64,000 nt of DNA. Origin: Minisyncoccota bacterium. GTDB taxonomy: Bacteria; Patescibacteriota; Minisyncoccia; Phycocordibacterales; UBA9973. Each line of letters starts with the position of its first letter. The stretch's first letter is position 1. The position numbers and the translations under genes were made by a program. The notes beneath the pieces are model-generated. The model saw only the letters and a program-made list of their open reading frames with translations. It did no database searches and was not told the DNA's origin. The stretch spans positions 8,424 through 72,423 of the forward strand of contig JBAYFP010000003.1 of assembly GCA_041667145.1 (NCBI GenBank), read 5' to 3'. Shown here piece after piece: positions 1,830 to 61,914 of this stretch.

Positions 1830-2486
1830 TTAGACATCAATAGAAAAATCTTCTTTTAGAAAAATAGGAAATTGTTCTCTTTGTTCTCTAACTAAAGAAG
1901 CTACTTTTAAACATTCCTCTTTAAAATTTAAATTATCACCATAAAATTCAAGGAGGATAGCTGCTTCTTTTTTAGAAACTATCTTAAAATTCATTCTCTC
2001 ATATTCTTTATCACTAGATACAATCAGACAACTTTTCTCAGGTGGTATATCATGAATCATGTAATTGACATTTACATAAGGAAAAACCTTTAAAAAATAC
2101 TGTTCGTCACTTATCAAATTAGATTTAAATCTACCTTGGAATAGTGCCCCACTGCGATGATGTACTTCATTGAAGTATTTTGTATACCCACCCAACAATC
2201 TTTTTAGAAATTCAGAAATACCTCCATCTATCTCTTGTTTTAGAACAAAATGAAAATGATTTGGGTTAAAACAATAGCAAACAATAGAAACTAAAACGTT
2301 TTGCTCTCCCATACATACGATACCCGATTTATCCCTAATACTCCCTATTGGTTTAATTGTATTAAACTTCTTTACACTTAAAACAAAACGATCTATATCT
2401 TTTTTGGTTGTAAAAATGTCTCTTTTATCAACACCCCTATTAAAAATATGATAATACTGATCAGTTACGAGAGGATTTTTTCTCAT
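1830..2486 (-). CDS. IS200-like Y1 HuH transposase of the REP-associated (RAYT, COG1943-type) kind.
   Basis: 218 aa. Motifs YYHIFNRGVDKRDIF, the HuH motif NPNHFHFVL, and GYTKYFNEVHHRSGALFQGRFKS. These match the YHV-NRG...NHVHLL...Y--Y-N--H-R-GHLWQGRFKS pattern of PF01797/COG1943 proteins. Flanked on both sides by REP1 palindromes. Confidence 0.8.
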   Translation of the reverse strand: MRKNPLVTDQYYHIFNRGVDKRDIFTTKKDIDRFVLSVKKFNTIKPIGSIRDKSGIVCMGEQNVLVSIVCYCFNPNHFHFVLKQEIDGGISEFLKRLLGGYTKYFNEVHHRSGALFQGRFKSNLISDEQYFLKVFPYVNVNYMIHDIPPEKSCLIVSSDKEYERMNFKIVSKKEAAILLEFYGDNLNFKEECLKVASLVREQREQFPIFLKEDFSIDV

Positions 2487-2527: not shown

Positions 2528-2612
2528 TTTAAAATATTTTAAATTAAATTATAAATGTAATTTAATTATTATCTCACAACACAAAAATTTTACCCTTCCT
2601 TCTGTGGATAAA

Positions 2613-2682
2613 CCTACAGACGTTGGACGTCTGGGACTTATCCACAACCCCAGACGTCCAACGTCTGGGAAAGAATAAAACA
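2613..2682. repeat. REP1 composite unit, second copy (direct repeat of 1733..1802).
   Basis: tgtggataaacctacagacgttggacgtctgggacttatccacaaccccagacgtccaacgtctggga. About 66 of 70 nt identical to copy 1. Confidence 0.85.
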
Positions 2683-9283: not shown

Positions 9284-9357
9284 TTGATAAAGTATTATGT
9301 TTTTGGAGCTGGTCTGGGGCTCTGCCTCGAGGACCCGAGAAAAATATAAACTTTATC
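9284..9357. repeat. E-family element copy 1: GC-rich core gagctggtctggggctctgcctcgaggacccgag between locus-specific AT-rich inverted arms.
   Basis: The core differs by 1 nt in 35 from the copy at 42139..42173. The arms tgataaagtattatgtttttg / agaaaaatataaactttatca are imperfect inverted repeats. Confidence 0.7.
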
Positions 9358-25312: not shown

Positions 25313-28300
25313 TTACTTTTCAATCTTTACTTTAAACAGCAAAGTGTCAATTTTAATCTCCTCCCCATTATTTTCCTCAAATTTTATCTTTGAAGCTAGG
25401 ATTATTTTCAACAAATCTTCTTCAAATTTTTGAATTAATTTTTTACCCTCGTCATTGGTCTCAACAGTGAGAGAAATAACATCACTAGGAGTGAGCCCCA
25501 TCTTCTTGCGCATGTCTTGTATTGCTCGCACAAATTCTCGATAATCTCCTTCTTGTTTTAACTCTCCTGTGATATTCATATCAAGCAATACTTCAACTTC
25601 AAGATTCTTATTTTCTTTTACTTCTTTCACATTAAGCTCATCCTTAATTAATTCAATATATTCACCACCTAAATTACAATCCTTCACTTCAAGTGAAGCT
25701 AAAGGCTGGCGAACTTTTAATCCTGCCTTTTGTCGAGCCTCGAGGCCTAAAGTCACGATCTTTCTGACAGTTTCCATATGTTCCAGTACCCCCTCCTTCT
25801 TCCTCCCCCTATATAGGGGGAGGCTAGGTAGGGGTATAAATCCAAATATCTTTGAAACCTTTACCTCTGGCCACTCTGTTAAATGCACACTTTCTTCATC
25901 TTCTTCGCTCCTTAATTTCAACCAAATATCTTCCGCAGTAAATGGTACAAACGGCGCCATTATTTTTGTAAGAGTTTTTAATACAAAATACAAAGTTATC
26001 TTTGCTTTTTCAGCATCACCAATCTCCAAATCTATAGCTCCTTTTATTCTTTCCCTTGAACGACGTAAGTACCAAGTAGAGAGGTCACCAATAAAATCAC
26101 GAATAGCCCTAGTTGGTTCAAGTAATTTATAGTCATCAAGGTGTTTAGTAACAAGATCTATCAACTCATCCAATTTAGCTAAAATCCATTGATCTAAAAT
26201 ATCATCTGATTTTCTAGGTCCTAAAATTTCTAAATGAGGATCTCTATATAACTCATAAAATGCTAAAACATTATACAATAATCCAAAAACCTGACGATGA
26301 AGTTCGAGTACTGTTTTTTCATCAAAATTCTTTGATTCACCCGGCTGATTTACAGAATACATCCAAAGACGCAATGTATCTGCCCCATATTTATCCATTG
26401 CTTCCCATGGGTCAACAATATTACCAAGAGACTTCGACATCTTCTTACCTTTTGCATCAAGTAAATGTCCTAAACAAATAACATTCTTAAAAGCTTTACC
26501 ACGACCCATCAATACACCAATAGCATGTAAAGTATAAAACCATCCACGAGTCTGATCTATGGCTTCAGAAATAAAATCAGCAGGATATCCAGGACCATCA
26601 ACCCATTCTTTATTTTCAAAAGGATAATGATCTTGTGAAAAAGGCATAGTTCCAGAATCTAGCCAAACATCCATAACTTCTTTTGTGCGTATTAAATTTC
26701 CACCACATTTACAAACAAGTTCTACTTCATCGATAAAAGGCCTATGTAAATCAAGTTCATAATTTTCATTATGAGGAAGCGGGACAAAATCAAAATTTTT
26801 AATTTGTGCGTTAGCCAAATCACTATCTTTATCGCATAATGTTTCTTCTTTATTTAAACCTTTCACCATTGAAAATAGCGCCCAAGCAGTATCTTCATGT
26901 GTCACAATCAAAATATTTTTATTTTCATATTTTTGATCCACTTCATAAATAAATTTACCTACCCTTTTTTTTACATCAAGTAAAGCCTCTCCTTTTGGAC
27001 AAGCTCCGTCATATCTTTCTAATTTGTGCTCTATAAAATAATCATCAATGTCTTTCATCGAACTAGAAGCAAAAATACCATCATTTATTTCCACTAATCG
27101 TGAATCATTTTTTATATCTTTTACTTGGAAATTTATTCCTTCAGCAACAATCTTCGCTGTTTCTTGTGTACGTAAAAAAGGTGAAGCAAAAATCAAATCA
27201 ATTTTCTTATCTATTAAAAGTTTGACAGCTTCTTTAACCTGTTTATTACCTTTTTCAGTAAGATGATGAGTATTATTTGGGTTACTTGAAACTACATTAA
27301 GAGCATTATTTTCGGCCTCTCCGTGCCTCATCACGAAATATTTATTGCCAGATTTTTTTGTCTTTTCTTTTATTTCTTCTACACCCCCAATCACATCAAT
27401 CTTTTTACATGAATCACAAATCCAAACTGGAAGCGGGGTCCCCCAATAACGTTCACGAGATATAGCCCAATCTTTTATATCTTTAAGCCATTCACCAAAA
27501 CGCCCATCACGTATATGTGAAGGTTCCCAATTTATATCTTTATTTTCCTCAATCATTTTGTTCTTAATTTTCGGATCAGACATTCTGATATACCAAGAAT
27601 CACGGGCATAATAAATAAGTGCAGTATGGCAACGCCAACAGTGAGGATAAGAGTGCTCATATTTTTCTTTTTTTAACAAAAGATTTTTATGGGCAAGATC
27701 TTTTATAATATCAACAGCGACTTCTTCATCTCTAACAAATCTATCTTCTAAAAATTCAGTTCCCTTTAAAAATTTACCATCAAGACCAACAAGGTGATGT
27801 TTTGGTAGCCCAATTTCATTGCCTAATACAAAGTCATCCTGACCATACATCACTGCGGTGTGCACTACACCTGTTCCATCTTCAGTTGTCACAAAATCTG
27901 CGTTGTAAACTTTATAAGCCTTTTCTAATTTTGGTTTTTCACTTTCAGAAATTGTATTTTGCAAAAATGGATAAAGTGATTCATATTGTAAACCAATTAA
28001 ATCTTTACCTTTTATTTCATCATGAATAATCTCAATATTCTGACCTTCAAAAACATTTTTTATTCTATCTTTTGCAAGAATGTAAAGTCCAGAAACACCA
28101 ACGACTCTTAATGCCACATAAGAAATATCTTTCCCCACGGCTAAAGCGACATTCCCTGGAAGTGTCCACGGTGTTGTGGTCCAAGCCAAGATATAAGCAC
28201 TCTCTTTTATTATCATACCCTTCCCAAAAGATTGACCGGGCTTGAGGTGAAATTTTACTGTTACTGACAAATCTTTTACATTTTCATACCCTTGGGCTAA

Positions 28301-28879
28301 TTCATGAGAAGACAAACCTGTACCACATCTAGGACACCATGGTACAACTTTATAATCCTTGTAGAGTAAATTTTGCTCATTAACTTTCTTCAAAATACTC
28401 CATACAGACTCCATGTAAGTATTATGATATGTGACATATGCATTTTCTTGATCAACAAAGTAGCCCATTCTCTCAGTAAATTTACTCCAATCATCCGTAT
28501 ACTGCCAGACACTTTCTTTACACTGTTGGTTGAATTTTACAATTCCATATTTTTCAATTGCAATTTTTGAATCTAAATTTAATTTTTTTTCTACTTGAAG
28601 TTCTACTGGTAATCCATGAGTATCCCACCCACCTTTACGACGCACATGAAAACCCTGCATAGTCTTATATCTAGGAATAGCATCTTTAAATGCCCTAGCC
28701 TCTAAGTGATGAATACCTGGTTTGCCATTAGCAGTAGGAGGTCCTTCGTAAAAAATAAATTCTTTCTTCCCTTCTGTTTGAGTTAGAGATTTTTGAAAAG
28801 TTTTATTTTCTTTCCAAAACTCTAAAATACGCTCTTCTCTAAGTGCTGTTTCTGATTTTACGTTTTTTTCTTTTTCCAT
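25313..28879 (-). CDS. ileS: Isoleucyl-tRNA synthetase carrying an internal histidine-phosphatase (PGAM-like) domain.
   Basis: HIGH motif present as PGIHHLE. KMSKS motif present as KMSKSLGN. The likely start is the ATG at 28879, because the T-box terminator U-run lies between 28879 and the TTG at 28912 used by the ORF track. About 190 aa containing FVMRHGE, SPFLRTQETA and ILIVTHED are inserted between WICDSC and DLHRPFIDE. Confidence 0.9.
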   Translation of the reverse strand: MEKEKNVKSETALREERILEFWKENKTFQKSLTQTEGKKEFIFYEGPPTANGKPGIHHLEARAFKDAIPRYKTMQGFHVRRKGGWDTHGLPVELQVEKKLNLDSKIAIEKYGIVKFNQQCKESVWQYTDDWSKFTERMGYFVDQENAYVTYHNTYMESVWSILKKVNEQNLLYKDYKVVPWCPRCGTGLSSHELAQGYENVKDLSVTVKFHLKPGQSFGKGMIIKESAYILAWTTTPWTLPGNVALAVGKDISYVALRVVGVSGLYILAKDRIKNVFEGQNIEIIHDEIKGKDLIGLQYESLYPFLQNTISESEKPKLEKAYKVYNADFVTTEDGTGVVHTAVMYGQDDFVLGNEIGLPKHHLVGLDGKFLKGTEFLEDRFVRDEEVAVDIIKDLAHKNLLLKKEKYEHSYPHCWRCHTALIYYARDSWYIRMSDPKIKNKMIEENKDINWEPSHIRDGRFGEWLKDIKDWAISRERYWGTPLPVWICDSCKKIDVIGGVEEIKEKTKKSGNKYFVMRHGEAENNALNVVSSNPNNTHHLTEKGNKQVKEAVKLLIDKKIDLIFASPFLRTQETAKIVAEGINFQVKDIKNDSRLVEINDGIFASSSMKDIDDYFIEHKLERYDGACPKGEALLDVKKRVGKFIYEVDQKYENKNILIVTHEDTAWALFSMVKGLNKEETLCDKDSDLANAQIKNFDFVPLPHNENYELDLHRPFIDEVELVCKCGGNLIRTKEVMDVWLDSGTMPFSQDHYPFENKEWVDGPGYPADFISEAIDQTRGWFYTLHAIGVLMGRGKAFKNVICLGHLLDAKGKKMSKSLGNIVDPWEAMDKYGADTLRLWMYSVNQPGESKNFDEKTVLELHRQVFGLLYNVLAFYELYRDPHLEILGPRKSDDILDQWILAKLDELIDLVTKHLDDYKLLEPTRAIRDFIGDLSTWYLRRSRERIKGAIDLEIGDAEKAKITLYFVLKTLTKIMAPFVPFTAEDIWLKLRSEEDEESVHLTEWPEVKVSKIFGFIPLPSLPLYRGRKKEGVLEHMETVRKIVTLGLEARQKAGLKVRQPLASLEVKDCNLGGEYIELIKDELNVKEVKENKNLEVEVLLDMNITGELKQEGDYREFVRAIQDMRKKMGLTPSDVISLTVETNDEGKKLIQKFEEDLLKIILASKIKFEENNGEEIKIDTLLFKVKIEK
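25789..25843. repeat. P-family nested GC-rich palindrome inserted in-frame in ileS (ccccctccttcttcctccccctatatagggggaggctaggtaggggtataaatcc).
   Basis: Inner palindrome cctccccct-atat-agggggagg and outer palindrome cccctcc...ggtagggg. Translates on the minus strand as GFIPLPSLPLYRGRKKEG. About 85% identical to 39592..39645. Confidence 0.8.
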
Positions 28880-29075
28880 ATATAAATTAAAAAACTCGTC
28901 CACGTACAACAATTAATAATTGCTATACAAGGACGAGTTTCTTCTCGTGGTACCACCTTGGTTACTTCTCATTACCGCTATAACGGGCTTACCCGTCGGG
29001 TTCTACTTAATTTCCTCCCGAAGCTCAGAGGTGATAACCTCCTCAATGCCTATAAATAAAGTATAGCATAAAATT
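28880..29075 (-). promoter_or_regulatory. T-box riboswitch leader upstream of ileS (putative Ile specifier; terminator/antiterminator).
   Basis: The minus strand reads AACCAAGGTGGTACCACGAG, which matches the T-box consensus AGGGUGGNACCGCG at 12 of 14 positions. A downstream helix CTCGTCC...GGACGAG plus UUUUUU ends 12 nt before the ATG. An upstream hairpin GAGG-AGGTTATCA-CCTC contains AUC. Confidence 0.65.
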
Positions 29076-29084
29076 TAAATTTTT

Positions 29085-30833
29085 CTACACCACCTCTTGC
29101 TGATAACATTTCTCACAATAGATCAAAAAGTTCTCTGATAGATCAAAAACAGTCTCCATATCTTTTTTACATTTTCCACATACTGCTCTATATTTCTTAC
29201 CTTCTTTAACGAAAGAAAGTCTATTTTCTATTCGTAATAACGGATGTGTATCTGGAAGAGGTAAATTCATTCTTCGATAAAACTCAAGCTCAGAACTAGC
29301 TACTCTAAAGGGCCTCCCACTTTTCACGCAAAGTATCGCTTTATTTAAAATATCATCTGGTATTTCTTGAATAGTTTTAGGTAAATCAGAGTATTTTACA
29401 ACCTCAATATTACCGACATTTGTTTCTGGCTCTTTCGCAATATAACCACCAAGCTTCAATATCTCTTCATCACTAAGTGGAAAAGAAATCTGGGCTAAAG
29501 AAAAATTATAGGCTTGGGCTGAAAATTCTAAGCCCAATCCATCTCCATATTCTCCCCTATTAAGCATGTCAGTTTTTATCTCATCAACTATTCTAAAATA
29601 TTCCTCTTCAGAATATTGTTTATTTAAAACACAATAAGATTTATTCTGAAGTCCAAAACACATGAAACAATTATTTAAGTTTTTTGAATTAAAAATAAAT
29701 TCACAATCTGTACAAAATTTTGATGACACAGAAAATTTCACCCTACTAGACTGTGAACCGACATTAATATTCATATAAACCTGACTTGAATTACCGCCAG
29801 AGAAAAGAAAGTCCATAGAATCTTTATGAGACATGGCTCCGTCTCCATGTCTAACGTTTTCAGAATTATTCGCATCTATCACATCATACAAATTTCTCGA
29901 ATTCTTTATATTCACACCAAAAACATTACTAGAAGCGACATTTCTAGATCCGTTTATTGGGAGTCTTTTAACTAACTCCCAAAATTTTTCTTGGTAACTT
30001 AATATTTTATCTAAAGTAAGTGGGTAAACTGTATTTAAAAAATTTTCATATTCATCTTTAGAGTATTGTTCATTAAAAACACAATACTTAGCATTACGTA
30101 AATTCACACAGCCAAAACAATTCATACAATTCCGACAATCAAATAATAACATGCTATCTGCGCAACTATTTGAGAAATAAATAAAAGAAGATTTATATAG
30201 ATGATCTGAAAATAAAGCCTCGTAAACAAATTCTGAATCAGTGACTACTTTAGAATCCATTATGTTTCTACTCTTCATTAACATATTTGAATACCATGCA
30301 TCTTCGACATCATAACAAGCCATAACATAATACCCATTCTTTAAATTACGTCCTCCATTTGAATAATCACTATTTACAGAAGATGGATCACGATTTAAAA
30401 AAGACGGCATTGGAAATTTCTTGCGAATTGAAGACAAAACCCTCATCGGGTCGTCGCCTTCTTTATACTTAATTCCAAAAGAAAAAGGATCAAACTCTTC
30501 ACCAATAAAATATTGATAATCGTACACAGGGAATGGACACTCTTCCGGGAATATAGATATCATCATTTCACTATGTCCAGGTGCATCACATTCACGTTTA
30601 AAAAGGCGAGAAAAATTCATGTGTACAAGACGTCGCATTCTTCTACATGTAGGACAAAAATTCGGTGGCGGAACATTAAACATTTTTAAAAATTTAATAT
30701 CTCCTTCTTCAATTTCAAAATCCCCTTCACAATAGGGATGTAAGCCTGACCATTTACATGTTCGCCCATGAGGAATCAGAGAGTCTATTATTTCTTTTAT
30801 TGCACTATCAAATTTTGGCGTTTTATTTGTCAT
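29085..30833 (-). CDS. Hypothetical Cys-rich protein with tandem C-x2-C...N-C-x2-C-F-G-C...Y-C-V-x-N-x-Q-Y-S-x-[DE]-E-Y modules and terminal zinc-ribbon-like CxxC pairs.
   Basis: 582 aa. Two homologous about 60 aa modules (LLFDCRNCMNCFGCVNLRNAKYCVFNEQYSKDEY and FIFNSKNLNNCFMCFGLQNKSYCVLNKQYSEEEY). N-terminal CKWSGLHPYC...CPTC and C-terminal CGKCKK...CEKC. Lies in the argS-ileS operon. Confidence 0.5.
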   Translation of the reverse strand: MTNKTPKFDSAIKEIIDSLIPHGRTCKWSGLHPYCEGDFEIEEGDIKFLKMFNVPPPNFCPTCRRMRRLVHMNFSRLFKRECDAPGHSEMMISIFPEECPFPVYDYQYFIGEEFDPFSFGIKYKEGDDPMRVLSSIRKKFPMPSFLNRDPSSVNSDYSNGGRNLKNGYYVMACYDVEDAWYSNMLMKSRNIMDSKVVTDSEFVYEALFSDHLYKSSFIYFSNSCADSMLLFDCRNCMNCFGCVNLRNAKYCVFNEQYSKDEYENFLNTVYPLTLDKILSYQEKFWELVKRLPINGSRNVASSNVFGVNIKNSRNLYDVIDANNSENVRHGDGAMSHKDSMDFLFSGGNSSQVYMNINVGSQSSRVKFSVSSKFCTDCEFIFNSKNLNNCFMCFGLQNKSYCVLNKQYSEEEYFRIVDEIKTDMLNRGEYGDGLGLEFSAQAYNFSLAQISFPLSDEEILKLGGYIAKEPETNVGNIEVVKYSDLPKTIQEIPDDILNKAILCVKSGRPFRVASSELEFYRRMNLPLPDTHPLLRIENRLSFVKEGKKYRAVCGKCKKDMETVFDLSENFLIYCEKCYQQEVV

Positions 30834-30842
30834 TTTTTATTC

Positions 30843-32603
30843 TTACATCCTTTCTGGAGCTTTGATACCGAGAAGATACAAACCGTTTTTCATAACGAGA
30901 GAAAAGGCTAAGGTTAAAGCCACTCGATAGGATGATTCTTCATCATTTTTATCGATTATTTTTGTATTTCCATAATAAGTATTGAAAGCACGAGCAATTT
31001 CAATCAAATAATTTGCAATATGATGTGGTTCAAATTCCTTTGTGCTTCGTTCTACAATTTCAGGGAATCTATATAAAAGTTTTTCTACTTCGGATATACA
31101 AAGGTCGAACCTTAAAAACCCCGGCAAAATATTTTCTGCCTTTGCTTTTTCTAAAATAGAATTTGCTCGAGCATATGAATATTGTAAATATGGGCCAGAA
31201 TCCCCCTCAAAAGAAATAGACTTCTCAAAATCATAAACAATATCTCCTCCAATGTTTTGTTTCAAGATAGAATATTTAAGCGCGCTTACCCCCACATCTT
31301 TACTTATTTGTTTTTTCTCTTCTTCAGTAAAATCCCTATCTTTTATCTTCTCTGAAATTTCTGCACAAGATTCTCGAATTAATGATTCTCCAGTTATTAC
31401 ATTTCCTTTTCTAGAAGACATCTTCCCTGTCGAAAGGCGCATCATGCCATGAATAATATGCTTCATTTTATGAGCTATCTCAGGATTCATTATTTCAAGC
31501 GCTTTACTGACTACTTTCATATACTCTTCTTGTTCATGCGCAGTCACTACTACAGATAGATCTAAGTTTTTTTCCTTTTCAAATTTCATCTCCGTAAGTC
31601 CAAGCTCTTTCGTCTCATAAGTAGGCAATCCTTGAGAATTCACAAAAACTCGGGTATGAAGTTTTGGGTCATATTTTTCACCATGAAAAACTATTGCTCC
31701 ATCACTTTTTTCAAAAATTTTATTTTCTGAAACTATTTTTAGCCCAATAGGAGCCACGACACTTTCAAAGAAATAATAATTAAAGCTTGTGCCTAGTGTC
31801 TTATAGATCTCTTCAAACGCTTCGAGTGTAATTATTTTCCCCCAATCATAAATTTCATTTATTTTTTTATCACTCTTATCATAAACTTTTCTATTTATTT
31901 CATCAATTTCTTTTTTTGCCTGCTCATCAGCCTCATAGACATCATTTCCTTTTACATAAAGCTCTCCGATATATTGCGCTTTTTCTGTCACAGATTTATT
32001 TTCATCTGGCATTCCAAACTTCAAAAGTCCATAAATTGCTTTTGCCACATGTGGGCCCACATCACCTTGATAATTTGCACGAATCGTTTTAGCCCCAGAA
32101 AACTCTACGATACGAGAGATAGATTCACCTATAGCGTTACTCATCAAATGACCGATATGAAAAGGTTTAAAAGGGTTCGGTTGTGTATATTCCACCATTA
32201 ATTTTTTTCCTTCAAAAATATTGTTGTGTCCAAAATTTTTATTCTCTAAAACTTCTTTCACACTATCTACAAAAAAAGTCTTATTTAAATAAAAATTTAT
32301 AAAGCCAGCACCGGCAACCTGAATTTCGGAAATTAGACCCCCTCCAACCTCCCCCTTCGCAGGGGGAGAGCTTAAATCCCTTAATTCTTTGACTATCTTA
32401 TTTGCTAATTCTTTTGGGTTCGTTTTTAATTCCTTCGCTAAAGTCATAGCAACATTTGTAGAATAATCTCCCATCTTCAAATCTGCTGGATGCTCTAAAG
32501 AAATATCTTCAATTTCTATATTGAGATTTTTAAGAGCATTTTTTATTAAATTTTTTAAATTATGTTGCATTTTTTTATGTAATGTTCTGGTAAAGAATTT
32601 CAA
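30843..32603 (-). CDS. argS: Arginyl-tRNA synthetase.
   Basis: 586 aa. HIGH motif present as HIGH. DALR anticodon-binding C-terminus. Typical N-terminal Arg_tRNA_synt_N segment. Confidence 0.9.
   Translation of the reverse strand: MKFFTRTLHKKMQHNLKNLIKNALKNLNIEIEDISLEHPADLKMGDYSTNVAMTLAKELKTNPKELANKIVKELRDLSSPPAKGEVGGGLISEIQVAGAGFINFYLNKTFFVDSVKEVLENKNFGHNNIFEGKKLMVEYTQPNPFKPFHIGHLMSNAIGESISRIVEFSGAKTIRANYQGDVGPHVAKAIYGLLKFGMPDENKSVTEKAQYIGELYVKGNDVYEADEQAKKEIDEINRKVYDKSDKKINEIYDWGKIITLEAFEEIYKTLGTSFNYYFFESVVAPIGLKIVSENKIFEKSDGAIVFHGEKYDPKLHTRVFVNSQGLPTYETKELGLTEMKFEKEKNLDLSVVVTAHEQEEYMKVVSKALEIMNPEIAHKMKHIIHGMMRLSTGKMSSRKGNVITGESLIRESCAEISEKIKDRDFTEEEKKQISKDVGVSALKYSILKQNIGGDIVYDFEKSISFEGDSGPYLQYSYARANSILEKAKAENILPGFLRFDLCISEVEKLLYRFPEIVERSTKEFEPHHIANYLIEIARAFNTYYGNTKIIDKNDEESSYRVALTLAFSLVMKNGLYLLGIKAPERM
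32337..32380. repeat. P-family palindrome inserted in-frame in argS (ccccctccaacctcccccttcgcagggggagagcttaaatccc).
   Basis: Same 5' half and inner palindrome cctccccct-tcgc-agggggag as the ileS and rnhA copies. Translates as SSPPAKGEVGGG. Confidence 0.75.
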
Positions 32604-32670
32604 GAGTCGTGGGTCCCCTGCCCTTATGACTCCGAGGGCGAAGGCTCAGAAATTTTTTATCAGAACATTA
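32580..32670. repeat. E-family-like hairpin element: arms taatgttctggtaaagaatttc / gaaattttttatcagaacatta around GC-rich core aagagtcgtgggtcccctgcccttatgactccgagggcgaaggctcag.
   Basis: About 20 of 22 nt of the arms are complementary. The core shares tgggtcccctRccc with 11947..12026. Lies between the dut stop and the argS start. Confidence 0.55.
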
Positions 32671-32678
32671 TATATCAT

Positions 32679-33128
32679 TTATTTATGTCCTGTACTTCCT
32701 TCACGTCCATCACCACGGATAGTCTCTGAAAGTTCTCCTACTTCAAGAATATCACAATGTTCAAATTTTTGTATTAGCATTTGCGCAATTTTATGGCCTT
32801 TTTCTAGCACCACCTTTTTATCCCCAGTATTTAATAAATTCATTATTATCTCACCTCTATAACTAGAGTCTATGACCCCACCCATGATTTTAAGACCCAA
32901 ATTGAAGGAAATCCCTGATTTGTCCCAAATTAATCCTACATAGCCTTCCGGTATCTCTACAGCTATTCCAGTAGGCACACGTTCTTGTTTACCAGGTAAA
33001 AATACGACATCCTGCAAAGCATAAAAATCCATCCCTGCATCCCCTGGATGTCCATGTGTCGGTATTTTTGCATCCTTATTTAACTTTTTAACTTTGAATT
33101 GCATATTTATTTGATTTAACAAAATCAC
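32679..33128 (-). CDS. dut: dUTP diphosphatase (start possibly at the internal Met at 33104).
   Basis: GDAGMDF, GVIDSSYRGE and RG..GEGSTG motifs. Confidence 0.9.
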   Translation of the reverse strand: MILLNQINMQFKVKKLNKDAKIPTHGHPGDAGMDFYALQDVVFLPGKQERVPTGIAVEIPEGYVGLIWDKSGISFNLGLKIMGGVIDSSYRGEIIMNLLNTGDKKVVLEKGHKIAQMLIQKFEHCDILEVGELSETIRGDGREGSTGHK

Positions 33129-33818
33129 CTACTTGGTTAAAACCTTTTTAACTTCTTCATAAACTTTATTATGAATATTTTCACGTGTATCTAAAACACC
33201 ATTTTTTAAGCAATCTATTTTTACCCAATTTTTCTGTGTCTTCGCAAGCCATAAAGCACTTTTTATAGAATTCTTTTTAAAATTAAGATCCACTTCATGA
33301 ACATCTTTTTTATTCCCTGCATAAGCTCTAACTGCCTTTTTATTTCTCTCTTTTATTAATCTCTCGACTATATTGAGAGGTAAAGAAAGATAAACAGTAA
33401 TATCAGGTCTTGGAATTTTAAAAACTTTATACTCCATCTCATCTAACCATCTTAAAAAATCAGTTCTTTTTTTAACACTTTTAATCTTTCCTCCTTGGTG
33501 TATCTGATTTGCGCTTACATATCTATCAAGAATAACAATATACCCTTCATTTAAAAACCTCTTTATTTGTTCTGAAGATTCCCATCTATCAGCAGCATAA
33601 AGCACAGAAACGATCTTTGGGTGAACTTTCACAAAATTGTAATATTGCTCGGTCAGGCAGTGTCCAATAAAACCACCGAAAAAATTATTGTAATGTGGAA
33701 AATGTATAGTTTTAATTTTAAAACCTAATTTTTTTAATCTTTTAGCTAAAAGATTTATTTGAGTAGTTTTCCCACTACCATCCGTCGCGTCTATAACTAT
33801 AAGTTTACCTTTTGCCAT
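33129..33818 (-). CDS. tmk: Thymidylate kinase.
   Basis: 229 aa. P-loop IVIDATDGSGKTTQ. DRY motif DRYVSAN. Confidence 0.85.
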   Translation of the reverse strand: MAKGKLIVIDATDGSGKTTQINLLAKRLKKLGFKIKTIHFPHYNNFFGGFIGHCLTEQYYNFVKVHPKIVSVLYAADRWESSEQIKRFLNEGYIVILDRYVSANQIHQGGKIKSVKKRTDFLRWLDEMEYKVFKIPRPDITVYLSLPLNIVERLIKERNKKAVRAYAGNKKDVHEVDLNFKKNSIKSALWLAKTQKNWVKIDCLKNGVLDTRENIHNKVYEEVKKVLTK

Positions 33819-33857
33819 ATAGAAAATATAGCAGAAAAAAGATCAAAATGAAAATTA

Positions 33858-34664
33858 TTATGAATCAAATTCTTTTTTTCTGTATAAATTTGCAATATCT
33901 TCCTCTGTGCCATTTTTAAGTGTTATAGAAATCCATAAATCATAAGGTAAGTAACCAGTTTTCTTATTAATTGAATTAGCTGTACATTCTTTTACTAATT
34001 TCACTATTTTATGAATATCAATGAACTCTGGTACTTTAAATAATTGGTTCACTTCTATAAAAAGTTTTTTGCTTTCTGGAAATTTTTTCTCAAATTTTGA
34101 AAAATACTTCATATAGTGATCAGTTGGAAGTGAAATAGTTCCATATTTATTTACAACATTCCTTGTCCAAAGTTGGTGCCCAGCAAAAATTTCATGGAGT
34201 GCTTCACAAAAACCATCATATTTATCTGCCCAGTCTACCACCATAGATTCAAGAGAATTTTTATTCACTGCTTCATCAAGTAATATTTTATAAACATAAC
34301 CATCTACATTAGAAGGAAATCTTTTTACTAACTCTTTAACTGCTTCTTTCTCTAGGTCATCTAATTTATGAATTTGTTCTTCTGTCATTGTATCTTTATT
34401 CCCTGCTTGAATATCTCCTATAATCATTTCCGCATCATCATGGACCAAAGCTGAAATATAAGCTTTTTTTTCATCAAACTTATCTCCAAATACTTTTTTC
34501 ACCAGAGGAGAAATTTCTTTTACAATCCATGCTACTCTTCTTGAATGAATCCATAAATCAGTCCTATACCACATTACATCATATAAACTATATCTAGTTA
34601 TATTTCGTAAATTATCTTCACGACCAATAAATTTATCTAAATCATTAATAATAATTTCACTCAT
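33858..34664 (-). CDS. HD-domain phosphohydrolase (YfbR-like 5'-deoxynucleotidase-like).
   Basis: 268 aa. HSRRVAWIV...LVHDDAEMIIGD (H...HD...D). Confidence 0.6.
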   Translation of the reverse strand: MSEIIINDLDKFIGREDNLRNITRYSLYDVMWYRTDLWIHSRRVAWIVKEISPLVKKVFGDKFDEKKAYISALVHDDAEMIIGDIQAGNKDTMTEEQIHKLDDLEKEAVKELVKRFPSNVDGYVYKILLDEAVNKNSLESMVVDWADKYDGFCEALHEIFAGHQLWTRNVVNKYGTISLPTDHYMKYFSKFEKKFPESKKLFIEVNQLFKVPEFIDIHKIVKLVKECTANSINKKTGYLPYDLWISITLKNGTEEDIANLYRKKEFDS

Positions 34665-34667
34665 AAT

Positions 34668-35132
34668 TTATTTTTCTCCTAACTCATTTAAGACTTCAGT
34701 TGCATAAAATAAAATATTTGGGCGTAAGTTCATGGTTTTTAATTCTTCTTTAGTCACCCAACGAGTTTCTGCACGTTCATGCTCATTTTTTGATCCAGAA
34801 ATAATGTTTGATTGAGATGTAGCAAAATATATAAGTACCACGTGTTGATGGGTATCATTTACATGGTGAGTAGCGAGATAACGAGGAGCTATGAGATGTT
34901 CATAATCAAATTCATTCTCAATTGCGGGTTTAGAACCAACTATTTTTATATCAAGCCCAACTTCTTCTTTCACTTCTCTCACCGCCGCTTGCAATGGATT
35001 CTCATCAAGCTCGATGTGCCCACCGACAGAAAGCCAAAGATTATGCTTTTCATGAAAACGAAGAAGCACTTTATCTTTATGGACAATAAATACTTCTACA
35101 CAATAATCAATTTTCTCGTGAATATGTGGCAT
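34668..35132 (-). CDS. NUDIX hydrolase.
   Basis: 154 aa. Nudix box GGHIELDENPLQAAVREVKEEVG. Confidence 0.75.
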   Translation of the reverse strand: MPHIHEKIDYCVEVFIVHKDKVLLRFHEKHNLWLSVGGHIELDENPLQAAVREVKEEVGLDIKIVGSKPAIENEFDYEHLIAPRYLATHHVNDTHQHVVLIYFATSQSNIISGSKNEHERAETRWVTKEELKTMNLRPNILFYATEVLNELGEK

Positions 35133-36308
35133 TTAATTCTTTTTTAGAATTTTATGAATTTTCCTAGCTATCAAAATCATATCCTTTTCTTTTTTGCCAC
35201 GAGTAGTCTCCGCGCAAGTACCCAGGCGAATACCAGATGGATCCATCACACTGCGTGTATCTCCAGGAATAGTATTCATATTTACAATAATATTCTCTTT
35301 TTCTAACCTTTCCCCTGCTTCTTTCCCAGAAATACCAACACCATTCATCCACGTATCCATAAGAATCAAATGAGAATCCGTGCCGCCAGAAATAATATGC
35401 CAGCCGAGTTTTTGTAATTCATTAGCTAAAGTTTTTGCATTTTTTACAACTTGTTTTGCATATTTTTTGAAGCTTGGAGTCATTGCTTCTTTTAAAGCAA
35501 TAGCTACAGCAGCAATATTATTTTCGTGTGGTCCACCAAAAAGTCCAGGAATAACCATCTTATCTAATTTTTTATCAAAACCTCTTTCATCTTTTTTTAC
35601 AAATAAGATAGCTTGTCTGGGGCCACGAAGGCTCTTGTGTGTCGTCGTCATGACGCTATCTGCATAAGGAAAAGGCGAAGGATAAACTCCTCCTGCAATG
35701 AGTCCAGCAAAGTGAGACATATCTACATGTAAAATCGCTCCACATGCATCAGCAATCTCTCTAAATTTTTTAAAATCAACAAATCTAGGATAAGCAGTAA
35801 AGCCTGCAACAATAATATCCGGTTTTTCGGCTATTGCTATTTCTTTTAATTTTTTGTAATCAATAACTTCACTCTTTGCATCAAGTTCAAATTGAAGTGG
35901 CTTCCAGAGTTTACCTGTCATTGAAAGAGGATGACCATGAGTCAAATGTCCACCAGAAGTTAATTTCATCCCCATAATTTTTCCACCTAATGGGACTAGA
36001 GCAGAATACAAAGCAAAGTTTGCTGGAGAACCCGAAAGAAGCTGCACATTCACATGCCATTCTTCAGGTTTTAATTTAAAAAGTTTTAAGGCACGCTCTT
36101 TACAAAGATTTTCTACTTTATCAATAACAGTATTTCCACCATAATATCGTTTTCCAGGATATCCCTCAGCATACTTATTTGTAAGTTTTGAACCTAATGC
36201 TTTTAAAATATCATTCGAAACATAATTTTCTGAAGCTATTAAATTAATAACGCTTTTTTGTCTTTTTTCCTCTTCTTTTATTAATCTTTCTACTTGTTTA
36301 TCTTGCAT
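35133..36308 (-). CDS. glyA: Serine hydroxymethyltransferase.
   Basis: 391 aa. LIASENYVS and TTTHKSLRGPR (PLP lysine). Confidence 0.9.
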   Translation of the reverse strand: MQDKQVERLIKEEEKRQKSVINLIASENYVSNDILKALGSKLTNKYAEGYPGKRYYGGNTVIDKVENLCKERALKLFKLKPEEWHVNVQLLSGSPANFALYSALVPLGGKIMGMKLTSGGHLTHGHPLSMTGKLWKPLQFELDAKSEVIDYKKLKEIAIAEKPDIIVAGFTAYPRFVDFKKFREIADACGAILHVDMSHFAGLIAGGVYPSPFPYADSVMTTTHKSLRGPRQAILFVKKDERGFDKKLDKMVIPGLFGGPHENNIAAVAIALKEAMTPSFKKYAKQVVKNAKTLANELQKLGWHIISGGTDSHLILMDTWMNGVGISGKEAGERLEKENIIVNMNTIPGDTRSVMDPSGIRLGTCAETTRGKKEKDMILIARKIHKILKKN

Positions 36309-37156
36309 GTTTTTATTGTATCACATCTCATAATTATTGTGCCTAGCTGGTCAGTTCTCAAAGTTTTTATATTAAATGAAGATAAAATATCTAATATTTC
36401 CTTATGTGGATGACCATACTTATTATCTTTACCATCTGAGATAAATGCATACTCCGGAGAAACAGCCTTCAAAAACTCTGTAGATGTAGAAGTCCGCGAA
36501 CCGTGATGTCCTACCTTCAGAATAGTACTTTGCAATTTTTCTTTTGAATTTTCTTGAAGAATTATTTTTTCTGTTTTTATCGTTGCGTCTCCTGTAAGTA
36601 CTATCGAAGTCTCGCCATAAGAAAGTCGCGCTACAGTAGATCCTTCGTTCGTCGCCCAAGAAGAAACGTCTCTATCTGGGAATAAAATATTTACCACTAC
36701 TCCACCACCAATATCGAGCTTCATCCCCCTTTTTACTAAGATGTCAGGGATATTATTTTTCTTAATCTCATCTTTCAAATTTTGATATGTTTTAGAATCA
36801 GTCAATGTACCTGACTCAAACATTTTACCTACCTTATAAATTTTTAAAACATCTAAAAACCCAGCGATATGGTCTGCATCTGGATTGGTAATAATGAATG
36901 CATCTATTGTTCTATCAAAAGGAGACATCACTTTAGAAAGTTGACTTAAAATCTTTTTCGGTGGTCCACCATCCACTAATATTTGTATACCTGTCGGAGA
37001 CTCAATAAATAAAGCATCACCTTGACCGACATCTAACATTGCAAAAGTAAAACCTCTATGAGAACTCTGCCAATCAAAATAAAAAATAAAAATATTCGTC
37101 ATCAAAAGCAAACAAACAAGAATAAACAACCAGTATTTTTTGCAATTCTCAAACAT
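36290..37156 (-). CDS. comEC: ComEC-type metallo-beta-lactamase domain protein (C-terminal part of a split ComEC).
   Basis: 288 aa. N-terminal TM segment. MLDVGQGDALFIESPTGIQILVDGG and NPDADHIAGF match the ComEC lactamase-B domain. Confidence 0.7.
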   Translation of the reverse strand: MFENCKKYWLFILVCLLLMTNIFIFYFDWQSSHRGFTFAMLDVGQGDALFIESPTGIQILVDGGPPKKILSQLSKVMSPFDRTIDAFIITNPDADHIAGFLDVLKIYKVGKMFESGTLTDSKTYQNLKDEIKKNNIPDILVKRGMKLDIGGGVVVNILFPDRDVSSWATNEGSTVARLSYGETSIVLTGDATIKTEKIILQENSKEKLQSTILKVGHHGSRTSTSTEFLKAVSPEYAFISDGKDNKYGHPHKEILDILSSFNIKTLRTDQLGTIIMRCDTIKTCKINK

Positions 37157-37222
37157 ATTTTAATATTAACATGGAGAAATAAACATCTTCATATTAATTT
37201 CATTAAAATTGTGTCATAATTC

Positions 37223-37822
37223 ATGTATATGAAAACATTCACACAAAAAAGTTTTAATATAGATGAACTAAAAGGTATATCAACTAAAAATATAGAAGAA
37301 CATTTGAAACTTTATGCAGGATATGTAAATCAAACAAATCTTGTACTTGAAAAAATAAATGAACTATCTGAAAATGCTGAAACAAATATGGGTATTTTAA
37401 GTGGACTACAAAGAAGGTTTAGTTTTGAATATAATGGCATGCGAAACCATGAAATCTATTTTGAATCGCTTTCAGGTAAAGCAAATACCCTAGAAGGGGG
37501 CAGTAAATTAAGAGAAGCCATAACAGCAGAATGGGGTTCGTTTGAAAAATGGCTCGCATTGTTTAAAGCTATCGCCACGACGAGAGGTGTCGGCTGGGCA
37601 ATACTTTATTTTGATAAAAAAGAGAATAGATTATTAAATGCTTGGGTTGATGAACAACATTTAGGTCAGCTCCAAGACTGTACACCTATCATAGCTCTCG
37701 ACATGTGGGAACATGCTTATCTCTTTGACTATATACCAGCAGATAAGAAAAAATATATTGAAGCTTTTTTTGAAAATATTAACTGGGAAGTAATTGAAGA
37801 AAATTTTAAAAAGGCTCAATAA
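37223..37822 (+). CDS. sodA: Fe/Mn superoxide dismutase.
   Basis: 199 aa. DMWEHAY signature and N-terminal metal-ligand His residues. Confidence 0.9.
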   Translation: MYMKTFTQKSFNIDELKGISTKNIEEHLKLYAGYVNQTNLVLEKINELSENAETNMGILSGLQRRFSFEYNGMRNHEIYFESLSGKANTLEGGSKLREAITAEWGSFEKWLALFKAIATTRGVGWAILYFDKKENRLLNAWVDEQHLGQLQDCTPIIALDMWEHAYLFDYIPADKKKYIEAFFENINWEVIEENFKKAQ

Positions 37823-39302
37823 AGAAACCTTTAATGCTTTTCCAAAAAAGAAAATAAATAAAATACATATAAATTAGTATTGTTAAAATAAGTGGAAAGT
37901 TGGGTATGGTTAACGAGGCAAAAGAGATATTTGCAAAGAAACTTATAATAGAAAGCTCATAATGAAGAAAGAGATATGAAATATACCCAAAAGGAACAGA
38001 AAGCATATACCAAATAATCCCCGTAAAACCAGTTAAAAATCCCAAAATCATAGTAAAAGGAATAAAAGGCAAAATTAAAATATTTGCAGGCAATGCTACA
38101 AGAGAAAGATTCCCCATCTTATATAAAATAAATGGCAAAACAAATATATAACAAGCACATGTCACTGACACAATATCTCGTAACCCAAAACGAGAAGTGG
38201 CCCACAAAAAATATTTCTCAATCCTAGGTGTATAAAATATCACAGCTACAGTCGCTATAAAAGAAAGCTGAAAAGAGACGTCATAACGAAGAATAAAAGG
38301 ATTTATTAAAATCATAGACACGCCAGCGAGCATGAGCGCCCGAGAGACATCATAATTTCTCCCTATAAGACGAGCTGTGAGTGCAAGAGTCGCCATTATC
38401 CCCGCTCGCACAGCGGTAGAAGAACCACCGGTCATTATTATAAAAAGTAAAATGGAAAATATTCCAGCTCCTATCCCAATATTTTTAGGAAAGGAAGAAA
38501 AAAGTTTCATTATCCATTCAGCTACAATCGTCACATTATATCCAGAAAGCGCGACGATGTGTATCGTACCAGTATCTACAAAACTCTTTCTTAGAGAAGC
38601 ATCAAAGGCAGATTTCTCTCCTAGAATAAGACCACTCATGAGTAGCGACTCTGGTTCCCTAATTACCAAATTCATCTTTTCTAAAAATTTTTCTTTAATA
38701 TAAAAAAGTGAACTTTTTACTAAATTCCCATTCCCGCTAGAGAGAACCTCAATCTTAGGATATGTCATCACATAAAATACTCCATCTTTTCTTAGATAAT
38801 TCACATAATCAAATTCTTTTCCTTGATCAGTAACAAAATTCTCCGGTTTCTTCAAAATTCCTTCAAAATTTATTTCATCACCATATTTAAATTCCTGATC
38901 TAAATTGGTAGATATCAGTATTTGCGTTTTATCTTTACCACCTAAAACTTTAACAATTAATTTTTGATTATTTACTCCGATACTTGGTTCATCTACTACA
39001 ATTCCAGAAAGTTTTATTTTATTAGATTCCCAGCCTAAAGCTGGTCCGTCTTGGGCGAAAAAAATATTATCTAGAGAAACATCAACTATACTAAATCTAA
39101 AAATACCTAGAGAAAACAATAATACAAAAATGGAAACTAAAATACCAAATTTATTTTTAGATATAAATACAAAAAATACTAATAAAGCAAAAGAAACTAT
39201 TCCTATAAAGACAACTGAAAATAAGTTCACAAAAACAAAAGAGCGCAATAGCACTCCTAAAACAAAACCAAAACAAGATACATAAAAAATTTTACCTTGC
39301 AT
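37806..39302 (-). CDS. comEC: ComEC/Rec2 N-terminal OB (DUF4131) plus membrane competence domain (N-terminal part of a split ComEC).
   Basis: 498 aa polytopic protein. FVDTGTIHIVALSGYNV competence-domain signature. Confidence 0.75.
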   Translation of the reverse strand: MQGKIFYVSCFGFVLGVLLRSFVFVNLFSVVFIGIVSFALLVFFVFISKNKFGILVSIFVLLFSLGIFRFSIVDVSLDNIFFAQDGPALGWESNKIKLSGIVVDEPSIGVNNQKLIVKVLGGKDKTQILISTNLDQEFKYGDEINFEGILKKPENFVTDQGKEFDYVNYLRKDGVFYVMTYPKIEVLSSGNGNLVKSSLFYIKEKFLEKMNLVIREPESLLMSGLILGEKSAFDASLRKSFVDTGTIHIVALSGYNVTIVAEWIMKLFSSFPKNIGIGAGIFSILLFIIMTGGSSTAVRAGIMATLALTARLIGRNYDVSRALMLAGVSMILINPFILRYDVSFQLSFIATVAVIFYTPRIEKYFLWATSRFGLRDIVSVTCACYIFVLPFILYKMGNLSLVALPANILILPFIPFTMILGFLTGFTGIIWYMLSVPFGYISYLFLHYELSIISFFANISFASLTIPNFPLILTILIYMYFIYFLFWKSIKGFFIEPF

Positions 39303-39322
39303 CTAAAAATTTAAATAAAAAA

Positions 39323-39832
39323 TTATTTTCCGTTTTTAAGTCTTATTTCATTACCATCTGCAAAATTTGTAGCTATTTCATCTGCGCGTTCATTCCATTT
39401 ATTACCATTGTGTCCTTCTACATAAATCCATTTAATCTTAAATAATTTAGTAAGTTCATAAAGTTCTTCCCATAGTTCTTTGTTTAAAACAGGTTTTTTG
39501 GCAGCATTTCTCCAGTTATTTTTCTGCCAATTAAAAATCCATTCTGTAATTCCCAAAATAACGTATTTTGAATCAGAAAAAACCTCAAATACCCCCTCCT
39601 TACTCCTCCCCCTACCGTAGGGGGAGGCTGGGTGGGGGTAAATACCACTATTTTTCATATACTTGAGAGCCTCTATAGGTGCAGTGAGTTCCATTTGATT
39701 ATTTGTAGCATGTTTAGAAGCCCCACCAATTTCAAAAACTTTTTTACCGTCAATTATGATGGCTCCCCATCCGGCTGGCCCTGGGTTCCCCCTCGCCGCC
39801 CCATCTGTATAAATTATTATTTTTGATTTCAT
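39323..39832 (-). CDS. rnhA: Ribonuclease HI with an in-frame insertion.
   Basis: 169 aa. IYTDGAARGNPGPAGWGA, NQMELTA and EGHNGNKWNERADE. Extra segment GIYPHPASPYGRGRSKEG encoded by a P-family palindrome. Confidence 0.85.
   Translation of the reverse strand: MKSKIIIYTDGAARGNPGPAGWGAIIIDGKKVFEIGGASKHATNNQMELTAPIEALKYMKNSGIYPHPASPYGRGRSKEGVFEVFSDSKYVILGITEWIFNWQKNNWRNAAKKPVLNKELWEELYELTKLFKIKWIYVEGHNGNKWNERADEIATNFADGNEIRLKNGK
39592..39645. repeat. P-family nested palindrome inserted in-frame in rnhA (ccccctccttactcctccccctaccgtagggggaggctgggtgggggtaaatacc).
   Basis: About 85% identical to the ileS copy. Same orientation and same reading frame relative to the host gene. Confidence 0.8.
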
Positions 39833-61126: not shown

Positions 61127-61210
61127 TAGCGAAATTATTTTATAATACCTTAATACTACCCCCCCCCGACATATTTTGTCAAATATTTGTATTAATCCAG
61201 CCCACTACTT

Positions 61211-61914
61211 AAACACTTGGACATCGGATGTCCAAGTGTTTAATTTTCTAATTCTTTTAACATTTCTTTTCTTAATTCCATATCTTCCAACGATGAAGAG
61301 ACAAAGTCCTCGTACTCTTTTTTATTTCTAAACTGTTCTAGCACAATATTTGTATTACAAAATTTATTATTTAACGTTTCATCTAAAAATTCATTCAAAC
61401 TTGATTTACTCAACTTAGACATCGGATGTCCAAGTTTGTTATTTCCATTAATATAAGCGCTAAGGTGAAGCAAATATTCATTTGAATCAATATGTTTTGA
61501 TTTAAATTTACCTTGGAAAAGAACACCGCTACGTTTATGCCTATTATTAAAATATTTTGTATACCCATTCCCCAACCTCTGCATAAATTTCTCAACCCCT
61601 TTCTCTTGAAGAGGAGTAATTAAAAAATGAAAGTGATTAGGGTTCATACAATAAGCAATAAATTGTACAAGCGGTTTCTTTTTTTTATTAGCTTCGCCAA
61701 ACTTTTTCTTAAAAGAAAATTCATAAACACTACCGATTGGCTCTGTTTGATTAAAATCAAATATACTTTCACAAAAACGAAATAAATCCTTTTCATCAAC
61801 AAAAATATTCCTCTTATCTGTTCCACGATTATAAATATGATAATACTCATTAATTGCAAAAGAATGTTTTCTCATACTCAAACTATATCACTTGGACATC
61901 GGATGTCCAAGTGG
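61211..61914 (-). mobile_element. REP-RAYT-REP unit B, inserted between tig and clpP. Its cognate palindrome family REP2 (ttggacatcggatgtccaa) is distinct from REP1.
   Basis: Palindromes at 61211..61241 (overlapping the stop codon), 61412..61436 (inside the coding sequence) and 61889..61914 (8 nt upstream of the start and 37 nt upstream of clpP). Confidence 0.7.
61240..61881 (-). CDS. IS200-like Y1 HuH transposase of the RAYT type, paralog of 1830..2486.
   Basis: 213 aa. [15 protein letters not shown], the HuH motif NPNHFHFLI, and [23 protein letters not shown]. About 40% identical to RAYT A across the conserved blocks. Confidence 0.8.

Follow-up and report, generated by a model that had tools for sequence, protein, structure and literature searches.

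Repeats fused in frame to coding sequences were reviewed by Delihas (2011; PMC3184786). Among them, the Rickettsia palindromic elements (RPEs; Ogata et al. 2000, listed in PMC3184786) are ~105–146 bp in length. Repetitive extragenic palindromes (REPs) that lie wholly within open reading frames (ORFs) were found in several species by Di Nocera et al. (2013; PMC3733652), the host genes including tRNA synthetase genes, truB and DNA repair genes, and the same paper equates RPE-4 and RPE-6 of Rickettsia with REPs. [quoted passage not shown] Here, we describe a GC-rich palindrome, named the P element, that occurs inside ileS, argS and rnhA in a 64-kb stretch of DNA from Candidatus Paceibacterota (the window; GC content, 31–41%). 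RNase H of the window shares 100% identity with a protein from a Candidatus Paceibacterota metagenome-assembled genome.

We conclude that the three segments are probably copies of a small, non-autonomous and selfish palindromic repeat of the REP/RPE kind that is widespread in Patescibacteria (the Candidate Phyla Radiation, CPR). Such behaviour is already known from intragenic REPs and RPEs; the new aspects of the P element are its occurrence in CPR, its sequence family, a design of 17 codons, how strongly it is conserved and the flanks that its copies share. No description of such elements in CPR was found in the searchable literature. As the first-pass annotation proposed, the behaviour is that of RPEs in a different low-GC lineage: a repeated palindrome lies in frame within housekeeping genes in a bacterium with a small genome, where it is apparently translated as an extra peptide, is missing from orthologues, occurs at other sites (including intergenic ones) in relatives and contains no transposase. 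Placement in surface loops is another shared feature, seen as gaps against solved chains and, for RNase H only, in an AlphaFold2 model. However, the units are 50–51 nt (type A) or ~35 nt (type B) rather than ~105–146 bp, consist of G5/C5-run sequence and reside in Patescibacteria, so that they fall outside the named Rickettsia families; this distinction is one of size and host, not of consensus alignment.

Yeast mitochondrial GC clusters and 'byp' elements are likewise short GC-rich palindromic mobile elements found inside genes of an AT-rich compact genome, and byp elements are skipped by ribosomal bypassing instead of being translated. P elements resemble them in landing in protein-coding genes of a compact AT-rich genome. 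However, those are organelle genomes, and the intact frames of many independent P copies argue, as far as the DNA can tell, for ordinary translation.

Copies of the P element in the window

A search of the window for CCCCCT-N2-10-AGGGGG yielded three matches, all with a spacing of N4/5, whereas none was obtained in 100 dinucleotide-preserving shuffles; the P element is therefore a repeat that did not arise by chance. The palindromes lie at the three places reported in the first-pass annotation, the peptides read from them (GFIPLPSLPLYRGRKKEG, SSPPAKGEVGGG and GIYPHPASPYGRGRSKEG) were correct, and each copy is contained wholly in a single minus-strand ORF (that of IleRS, ArgRS or RNase HI).

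The ileS and rnhA copies belong to type A, a nested palindrome of 51 nt with the structure TACCCCYACCCAR-CCTCCCCCT-loop-AGGGGGAGG-AGYAAGGAGGGGGTA, in which the inner hairpin accounts for 20–23 nt. They are ~86% identical over the 51-nt core, in good agreement with the ~85% over 55 nt first reported, and both form nested hairpins with folding z scores of -3.4 to -4.8 relative to shuffled sequences (as RNA of either strand). We built a covariance model, R1, from 11 CPR copies. It detected the rnhA copy with 75.4 bits and the ileS copy with 70.8 bits (E = 3e-12), both in sense orientation on the minus strand. In the argS copy, only the inner hairpin was matched (16 bits, E = 0.33). This copy is ~35 nt long and consists of a hairpin with a G-rich tail, CTCCCCCT-GCGA-AGGGGGAG-GTTGGAGGGGGT, without the 5' outer arm, and it is nearly identical to the copies found in three other loci (L184, L238 and L233). 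The proposal that all three copies form one family thus needs correction: the argS copy is a member of a related but distinct subfamily, which we call type B.

A covariance-model search with filters off detected no further copy, intact or degenerate, in the 64-kb window. Rfam contained no family for the motif in 18 loci, and no match to it, to a tRNA or to any other Rfam family was detected anywhere in the window at the gathering threshold. A census by insert peptides also gave no result: a word-index search with a 60-aa concatenate of the three peptides returned no candidates, and a 30-aa query encoded by the window had no match in a representative library. The coordinates of the copies, their host genes and other features are listed in Table 1.

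Table 1. Positions of P elements, host genes and other features (window coordinates unless a locus label precedes the position)
Feature	Position	Strand	Remarks
ileS (isoleucyl-tRNA synthetase), host gene	25313..28912	-	Carries an inserted His_Phos_1 domain
argS (arginyl-tRNA synthetase), host gene	30843..32603	-	Element in the N-terminal Arg_tRNA_synt_N domain
rnhA (RNase HI), host gene	39323..39832	-	Element in the helix A–strand 4 loop
Type A P element in ileS (50-nt nested palindrome)	25787..25836	-	Coding strand TACCCCTACCTAGCCTCCCCCTATATAGGGGGAGGAAGAAGGAGGGGGTA; peptide (I)PLPSLPLYRGRKKEGV
Type B P-like element in argS	32337..32371	-	Coding strand GCTCTCCCCCTGCGAAGGGGGAGGTTGGAGGGGGT; peptide SSPPAKGEVGGG
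Type A P element in rnhA (51 nt, 17 codons)	39590..39640	-	Coding strand TACCCCCACCCAGCCTCCCCCTACGGTAGGGGGAGGAGTAAGGAGGGGGTA; peptide YPHPASPYGRGRSKEGV
TTA/CTG (or CAG/TAA) flanks, window	25784-25786 and 25837-25839		
TTA/CTG (or CAG/TAA) flanks, other loci	L074:156-210; L130:2206-2262; L242:10193-10249		
Junction-spanning tryptic peptides (predicted)			SKEGVFEVFSDSK; KEGVLEHMETVR
First RAYT-like gene	1830-2486	-	Y1_Tnp; paralogous to the second
Hairpin repeats at the first RAYT-like gene	1733-1805; 2603-2675		CTCCCAGACGTCCAACGTCTGGGAG doublets
Second RAYT-like gene	61240-61881	-	Y1_Tnp; paralogous to the first
Hairpins at the second RAYT-like gene	61207-61238; 61405-61436; 61882-61913		CACTTGGACATCGGATGTCCAAGTG
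Intergenic repeat, 56 nt	9294-9349; 42128-42183		Copies 88% identical; contains GAGCTGGTCTGGGGCTCTGCCTYGAGGACCCGAGAAAA
rnhA of a relative	L243:10001-10483		Other short insert in the RNase H loop
Intergenic P copy	L244:1295		
Negative GC skew, plus strand	1-64000		Nearly the whole window

Gain and loss in loops of the host proteins

All three window segments are, on comparison with related genomes, insertions that were gained at different sites. Among 37 Paceibacteria orthologues of RNase H aligned at 66–83% identity, some have a YPYPASPYSRGRSKEGV-like peptide after helix A and many do not, and orthologues at 70–80% identity may either carry or lack it. Five orthologues contain the same peptide at a second site, the beta2–beta3 hairpin. 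At the DNA level, the insertion points in rnhA comprise at least two distinct positions in the helix A/strand 4 loop (..GGT TTA^TAC.. versus ..AAA AAG^TAC.., where the caret marks the junction) and the second site. The ArgRS insert is missing from the three syntenic relatives L242, L243 and L244. The IleRS insert was found in this lineage only among 120 homologues, the nearest of which read KPFKFLSF--GKSKIIENME, and two homologues have acquired independent P-like inserts in the same loop (P0215, ..SLPLTKGEEKEGVL..; P0203, ..LNKGEVPKAEGVL..). In RecJ, the distribution is reversed: L242, L244, L154 and L260 carry the element, while the same site is empty in the window and in L243. The closest orthologues of all three enzymes lack the inserts.

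If there had been no insertion, the segments would be ancestral or convergent Pro/Gly/Arg-rich loops, and their DNA similarity would follow from amino-acid conservation. Loop lengths do vary in this lineage, as such an explanation would have it. However, the segments are missing from solved structures and from the nearest orthologues, the three window copies are in different frames, so that similar DNA yields different peptides, and one and the same 51-nt sequence is found both between genes and within genes for unrelated proteins. Furthermore, the nucleotide identity of the element far exceeds that of the conserved enzyme core. Among the seven copies at the RNase H loop, the element is 93.7% identical, compared with 75.7% for the rnhA core and 55.5% for third codon positions. 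Ancestral loops are contradicted by the frame analysis and the intergenic copies, and we regard them as very nearly untenable. An assembly artefact was also rejected, because the element is present in many independent assemblies (ENA, JGI and NCBI).

The inserts correspond to a 16-residue gap in IleRS relative to PDB 8c8u, an 8-residue gap in ArgRS relative to PDB 2zue and a gap in RNase H relative to the E. coli and other RNase HI structures. All three fall between secondary-structure elements of the solved chains, the placement in IleRS and ArgRS being by alignment only. In an AlphaFold2 model of RNase H, the core is confidently predicted, and residues 63–80, between the helix of residues 44–62 and the strand of residues 81–86, form a coil with a predicted local distance difference test (pLDDT) score of ~47–63. 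The loop placement anticipated for the inserts therefore agrees with the gaps in all three enzymes and with the low-confidence coil in the RNase H model. The statement that these positions are not normally extended is valid with respect to solved structures; in Paceibacteria, the same loops are hot spots with various inserts.

Other short inserts are present in RNase H loops elsewhere (the rnhA gene of L243, P0004, P0119, P0081, P0089 and P0092). One of them is a different palindrome, TGCGTTAGG-CAAGA-CCTAGCGCA, which encodes the peptide TCVRQDLAQT, and others encode TCPPKRRE and NYELGITNYK. Protein loops in CPR thus appear to be colonised by several families of small repeats. IleRS of the window has a further peculiarity: a complete histidine-phosphatase domain (His_Phos_1, PF00300; residues 526–690) is inserted so as to separate both halves of the catalytic domain, as is also the case in many IleRS homologues from Paceibacteria and in L243, a syntenic relative. 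The true start of ileS is probably an ATG located 11 codons downstream of the listed TTG.

Outside the window, type A copies were found in other CPR genes, namely those for the CCA-adding enzyme (L130), MnmA and AlaRS (both L074) and TruB (L153). Copies are also located between genes in a Saccharibacteria contig (L013; three copies in two spacers) and in L225, L173, L239 and L244. The initial remark that no intergenic copy occurs in the 64-kb window is correct, but the family also has intergenic members in other CPR contigs. The density is 3 copies per 64 kb in the window and approximately one per 10–20 kb in relatives. The 26-base pattern of core plus tail was detected in at least 120 loci of a metagenome collection, and contigs of 35–70% GC are among the matches listed; the hairpin-plus-tail core is consequently not unique to this lineage. 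A genome-collection scan with the inner palindrome alone was unspecific, the matches listed being mostly from high-GC Proteobacteria. In the high-GC contigs among the matches listed, type B forms inverted (-/+) doublets 50–100 nt apart, an arrangement that is not seen in the window. Twelve loci with the pattern, mostly of type B, are in viral contigs and are uninformative on a vector.

The motif CCTCCCCCTTCAAGGGGGAGGTYRGGAGGGGGATGGGGT recurs with very different flanks in contigs of 50–70% GC (loci among L122–L241, such as L185, L197, L145 and L228, and also L004), often as inverted doublets 50–100 nt apart or in tandem, and has no Rfam match. It has the appearance of a REPIN-type repeat of wide distribution whose core is also that of the CPR element. 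The window also contains a 56-nt intergenic repeat in two copies with no Rfam match; the second copy is located inside a 52-nt inverted repeat upstream of recJ.

Reading frames, junctions and mobilisation

In the first-pass annotation, the three copies were described as inserted in the same reading frame. In fact, the codon phase of CCCCCT in the 5' arm is 2 in ileS, 0 in argS and 1 in rnhA, and that of AGGGGGAG in the 3' arm is 0, 1 and 0, respectively. Owing to an ileS loop that is shorter by 1 nt, the ileS and rnhA copies agree in frame from the loop on but not before it. The argS copy is in another frame along its whole length, and this explains the different look of its peptide, SSPPAKGEVGGG. 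The canonical unit of 51 nt corresponds to 17 codons, and four of its six frames (two of the three in each orientation) are free of stop codons. The frames in use give rise to YPYPASPYSRGRSKEGV in rnhA, TPTQPPPTVGGGARRG in the CCA-adding enzyme, SPYVGGEREGV in RecJ and PLPSLPLYRGRKKEGV in ileS. The 5' half of the ileS copy is in a frame that, in the canonical sequence, is interrupted by a stop (..LQ*GEE*). With the shorter and altered loop of this copy, the stop is lost and the reading is back in the RGR..EGV frame. Measured from TA to TA, the lengths of genic copies are mostly multiples of three (mainly 51 nt and, in a few cases, 48, 54 or 57 nt).

The annotation further took the exclusively genic location to suggest either a frame-aware insertion mechanism or selection for coding sites. 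However, ~92% of the window is coding, with 84% of the coding bases on the minus strand, and three random landings would all be genic with a probability of ~0.78. Three genic copies thus need no frame-aware mechanism, and intergenic copies exist in other CPR contigs. In view of the differing frames and the coding density, we rejected such a mechanism as unsupported, and the location of all three copies in minus-strand genes does not speak for one either. The GC skew of the plus strand is negative across nearly the whole window, which appears to lie within one replichore with its genes co-oriented with replication.

Analysis of the junctions revealed that the flanks at ileS, MnmA, the CCA-adding enzyme and rnhA site 2 are 5'-TTA^TACCCC...GGGGGTA^CTG-3' or its reverse complement; the flank at rnhA site 1 is ..^CTG. 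The trinucleotide CTG accounts for 1.0% of all trinucleotides and 1.9% of leucine codons, and its presence in five of eight events gives P ~2e-7 in a post hoc calculation. Apart from the palindromic TA, the copies are not bordered by any direct repeat. These shared flanks can be read in two ways, as a target preference for TTA^CTG without duplication or as a 3-nt extension of the palindrome that is kept on one side only.

Nearly all type A copies in Paceibacteria start and end with TA, and, like many MITEs, the unit in its entirety forms a single long inverted repeat. Both features would be expected of a classical MITE with CCCC...GGGG terminal inverted repeats that is moved by a DDE transposase of the IS630/Tc1-mariner type and duplicates a TA target. 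P elements are comparable to MITEs in being non-autonomous inverted-repeat elements able to add residues to proteins. However, if one TA were derived from the host, insertion would add 49 nt and shift the frame, whereas most genic copies are exactly 51 nt and in frame, and an IS630/Tc1-like mechanism is ranked low for this reason. In addition, TA extends the palindrome (TAC...GTA) and is replaced by AA, TT or GA in other CPR lineages (L153, L173, L013 and L239), the 51-nt unit is smaller than a usual MITE, and no parent insertion sequence with CCCC...GGGG ends was found in any fetched locus. The combination of terminal inverted repeats and a target-site duplication that defines MITEs was thus not evident, a judgement that is indirect and follows from the comparison of +51 with +49 nt. 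We therefore consider movement as a MITE improbable.

In our preferred explanation, a selfish repeat of the REP/RPE kind, insertion would add 51 nt without a target-site duplication, so that the frame is kept, and would favour a TTA/CTG junction. A single-stranded hairpin intermediate may be recognised in trans by a sequence-specific enzyme, for which a Y1 (HUH) tyrosine transposase of the REP-associated tyrosine transposase (RAYT)/IS200 type is the leading candidate; the identity of this mobiliser is a guess that we make only tentatively. Genic copies would be translated within the host protein, where 8–17 extra residues can survive in variable surface loops. Frame tolerance is intrinsic to the repeat, which spans 17 codons, is stop-poor owing to its GC richness and is open in four of six frames, and landings in a bad frame carry small compensating indels, such as the 1-nt shortening of the ileS loop. 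In a genome that is ~92% coding, most landings would be genic, and selection would filter the insertions. Continued recognition, repeated re-invasion or gene conversion may keep the copies ~94% identical across diverged genomes.

The comparison with REPs bears on this candidate. Similar to REPs and REPINs, P elements are short GC-rich imperfect palindromes, some of which lie entirely inside ORFs and add residues, and the host gene classes agree (tRNA synthetases, truB and DNA repair). The inverted doublets of type B resemble REPINs. A conserved tetranucleotide, GTAG or CGTC, marks one end of the REP palindrome (PMC3733652). In most Paceibacteria copies, GTAG begins the inner 3' arm (GTAGGGGGAGG), with ATAG, TAAG, AAAG or CGGG in the others, and the motif is internal rather than terminal. 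With respect to the REP size range of 20–40 bp, the inner hairpin (20–23 nt) falls within it and the whole unit (51 nt) does not. Classical REPs occur in large numbers and for the most part outside genes, downstream of them, whereas the density of P elements in the 64-kb window is low and the three copies are all genic. The window itself encodes RAYT-like Y1 transposases: two paralogous Y1_Tnp genes, each accompanied by its own hairpin repeats, have a REPtron-like layout. With an inconsistent end tag and no cognate RAYT found in the window or the fetched loci, P elements are neither typical REPs nor clearly set apart from them.

Several observations weigh against this scheme. The hairpins at both RAYT-like genes have no relation to the P family and do not recur at other places in the window, and a RAYT gene flanked by P repeats, as in a REPtron, was found neither in the window nor in the fetched loci. 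In a phmmer search with both proteins against all ORFs of ~260 fetched loci, no RAYT-like homologue was detected near P copies, and the ORFs between paired copies (L013, L031 and L137) are ordinary genes, with no transposase among them. The TTA/CTG flanks recur, as in IS200/IS605 (PATE-like) elements, but their orientation (TTA..CTG versus CAG..TAA) is independent of the asymmetry of the element, contrary to the prediction of a simple IS608-like strand-specific model. There is no truly close pair of one empty and one filled site, and we infer where precisely the junctions lie and that a target duplication is absent. Three of the ~8 independent genic copies are 49, 50 or 55 nt from TA to TA, so that neighbouring indels must be assumed. 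Finally, the inserts are predicted to be translated on the ground of their intact frames. Comparison of the sequences establishes the P element as a repeated palindrome that is gained and lost, tolerates different frames and apparently contributes loops to the host proteins.

Conservation of the element and its significance

Sequence identity, pairing and orientation suggest that the P element is more than a relic. The element is conserved at all three codon positions, and its inner helix is 95.8% paired across 24 copies. These copies are mutually related, so that a shuffle control overstates the significance, and pairing is supportive only. Compensated stem changes were found from T:A to C:G (L242) and from T:A to G:C (site 1 of L258), and one outer-stem position is T.G in 14 of the 24 copies, a wobble that exists on the sense strand only. 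The element is asymmetric, its 5' arm being TACCCCYACCCAR and its 3' arm AGYAAGGAGGGGGTA, which contains UAAGGAGG. The sense orientation, defined by UAAGGAGG, coincides with the host-gene strand in all seven independent genic insertions. Replication direction is a confounder of this bias, since almost every gene lies on the leading strand, which is rich in G; relative to GC skew, the orientation bias is only ~7 to 2–3.

An identity of 94% in the element, the compensated stems and the presence of UAAGGAGG on the mRNA strand could be accounted for by selection that acts on the RNA or by a conserved partner acting in trans. They raise the possibility that the P element is a cis-acting nucleic-acid element selected by the host for a function, not a mere selfish passenger. 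One example would be an mRNA hairpin that sequesters the perfect Shine-Dalgarno (SD)-like UAAGGAGG against a CCUCC-rich arm and pauses ribosomes, and another a DNA hairpin or a motif rich in G to which a host factor binds. The contrast between 94% identity in the element and 56% at host third codon positions, the conservation of all codon positions, the compensatory stem changes, the sense-strand wobble in 14 of 24 copies and the constant UAAGGAGG orientation (7/7) are all in line with this idea, as is the conservation of the core in contigs of very different GC content. However, the identity is accounted for just as well if the element spread recently or evolved in concert from a conserved master copy, and the orientation bias has the replication-related confounder described above. 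Presence and absence differ among close orthologues, many of which lack the element, insertion points vary within one loop, and copies lie in unrelated genes and between genes. A host-selected function is accordingly unlikely in our judgement. A broader proposal would place the P element in a pan-bacterial G5-hairpin superfamily (core CCTCCCCCT-loop-AGGGGGAGG-N-GGAGGGGG; contigs of 35–70% GC) that is actively maintained in essential CPR genes, as a mobile SD/anti-SD hairpin that modulates translation of the host gene and spreads without target duplication and with a TTA^CTG preference. We hold this proposal to be unlikely to a similar degree.

The selfish repeat that we favour has several consequences. 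Its high conservation, together with the TTA^CTG flanks, provides a concrete handle for finding the mobilising enzyme. The upside lies in the question of whether this conservation and the sense-strand asymmetry reflect a function or a conserved trans-acting partner. For annotation, the P element accounts for recurrent YPYPASPYSRGRSKEGV-like, PLxKGE-like and similar low-complexity loops in housekeeping proteins of CPR, and loops flagged as insertion polymorphisms may be useful for strain typing. These results extend the concept of selfish DNA in protein-coding genes, so far represented by the RPEs of Rickettsia and the intragenic REPs of Proteobacteria, to the CPR, where, in genomes that are ~92% coding, a stop-poor palindrome of 17 codons would be a neat route to the persistence of a repeat.

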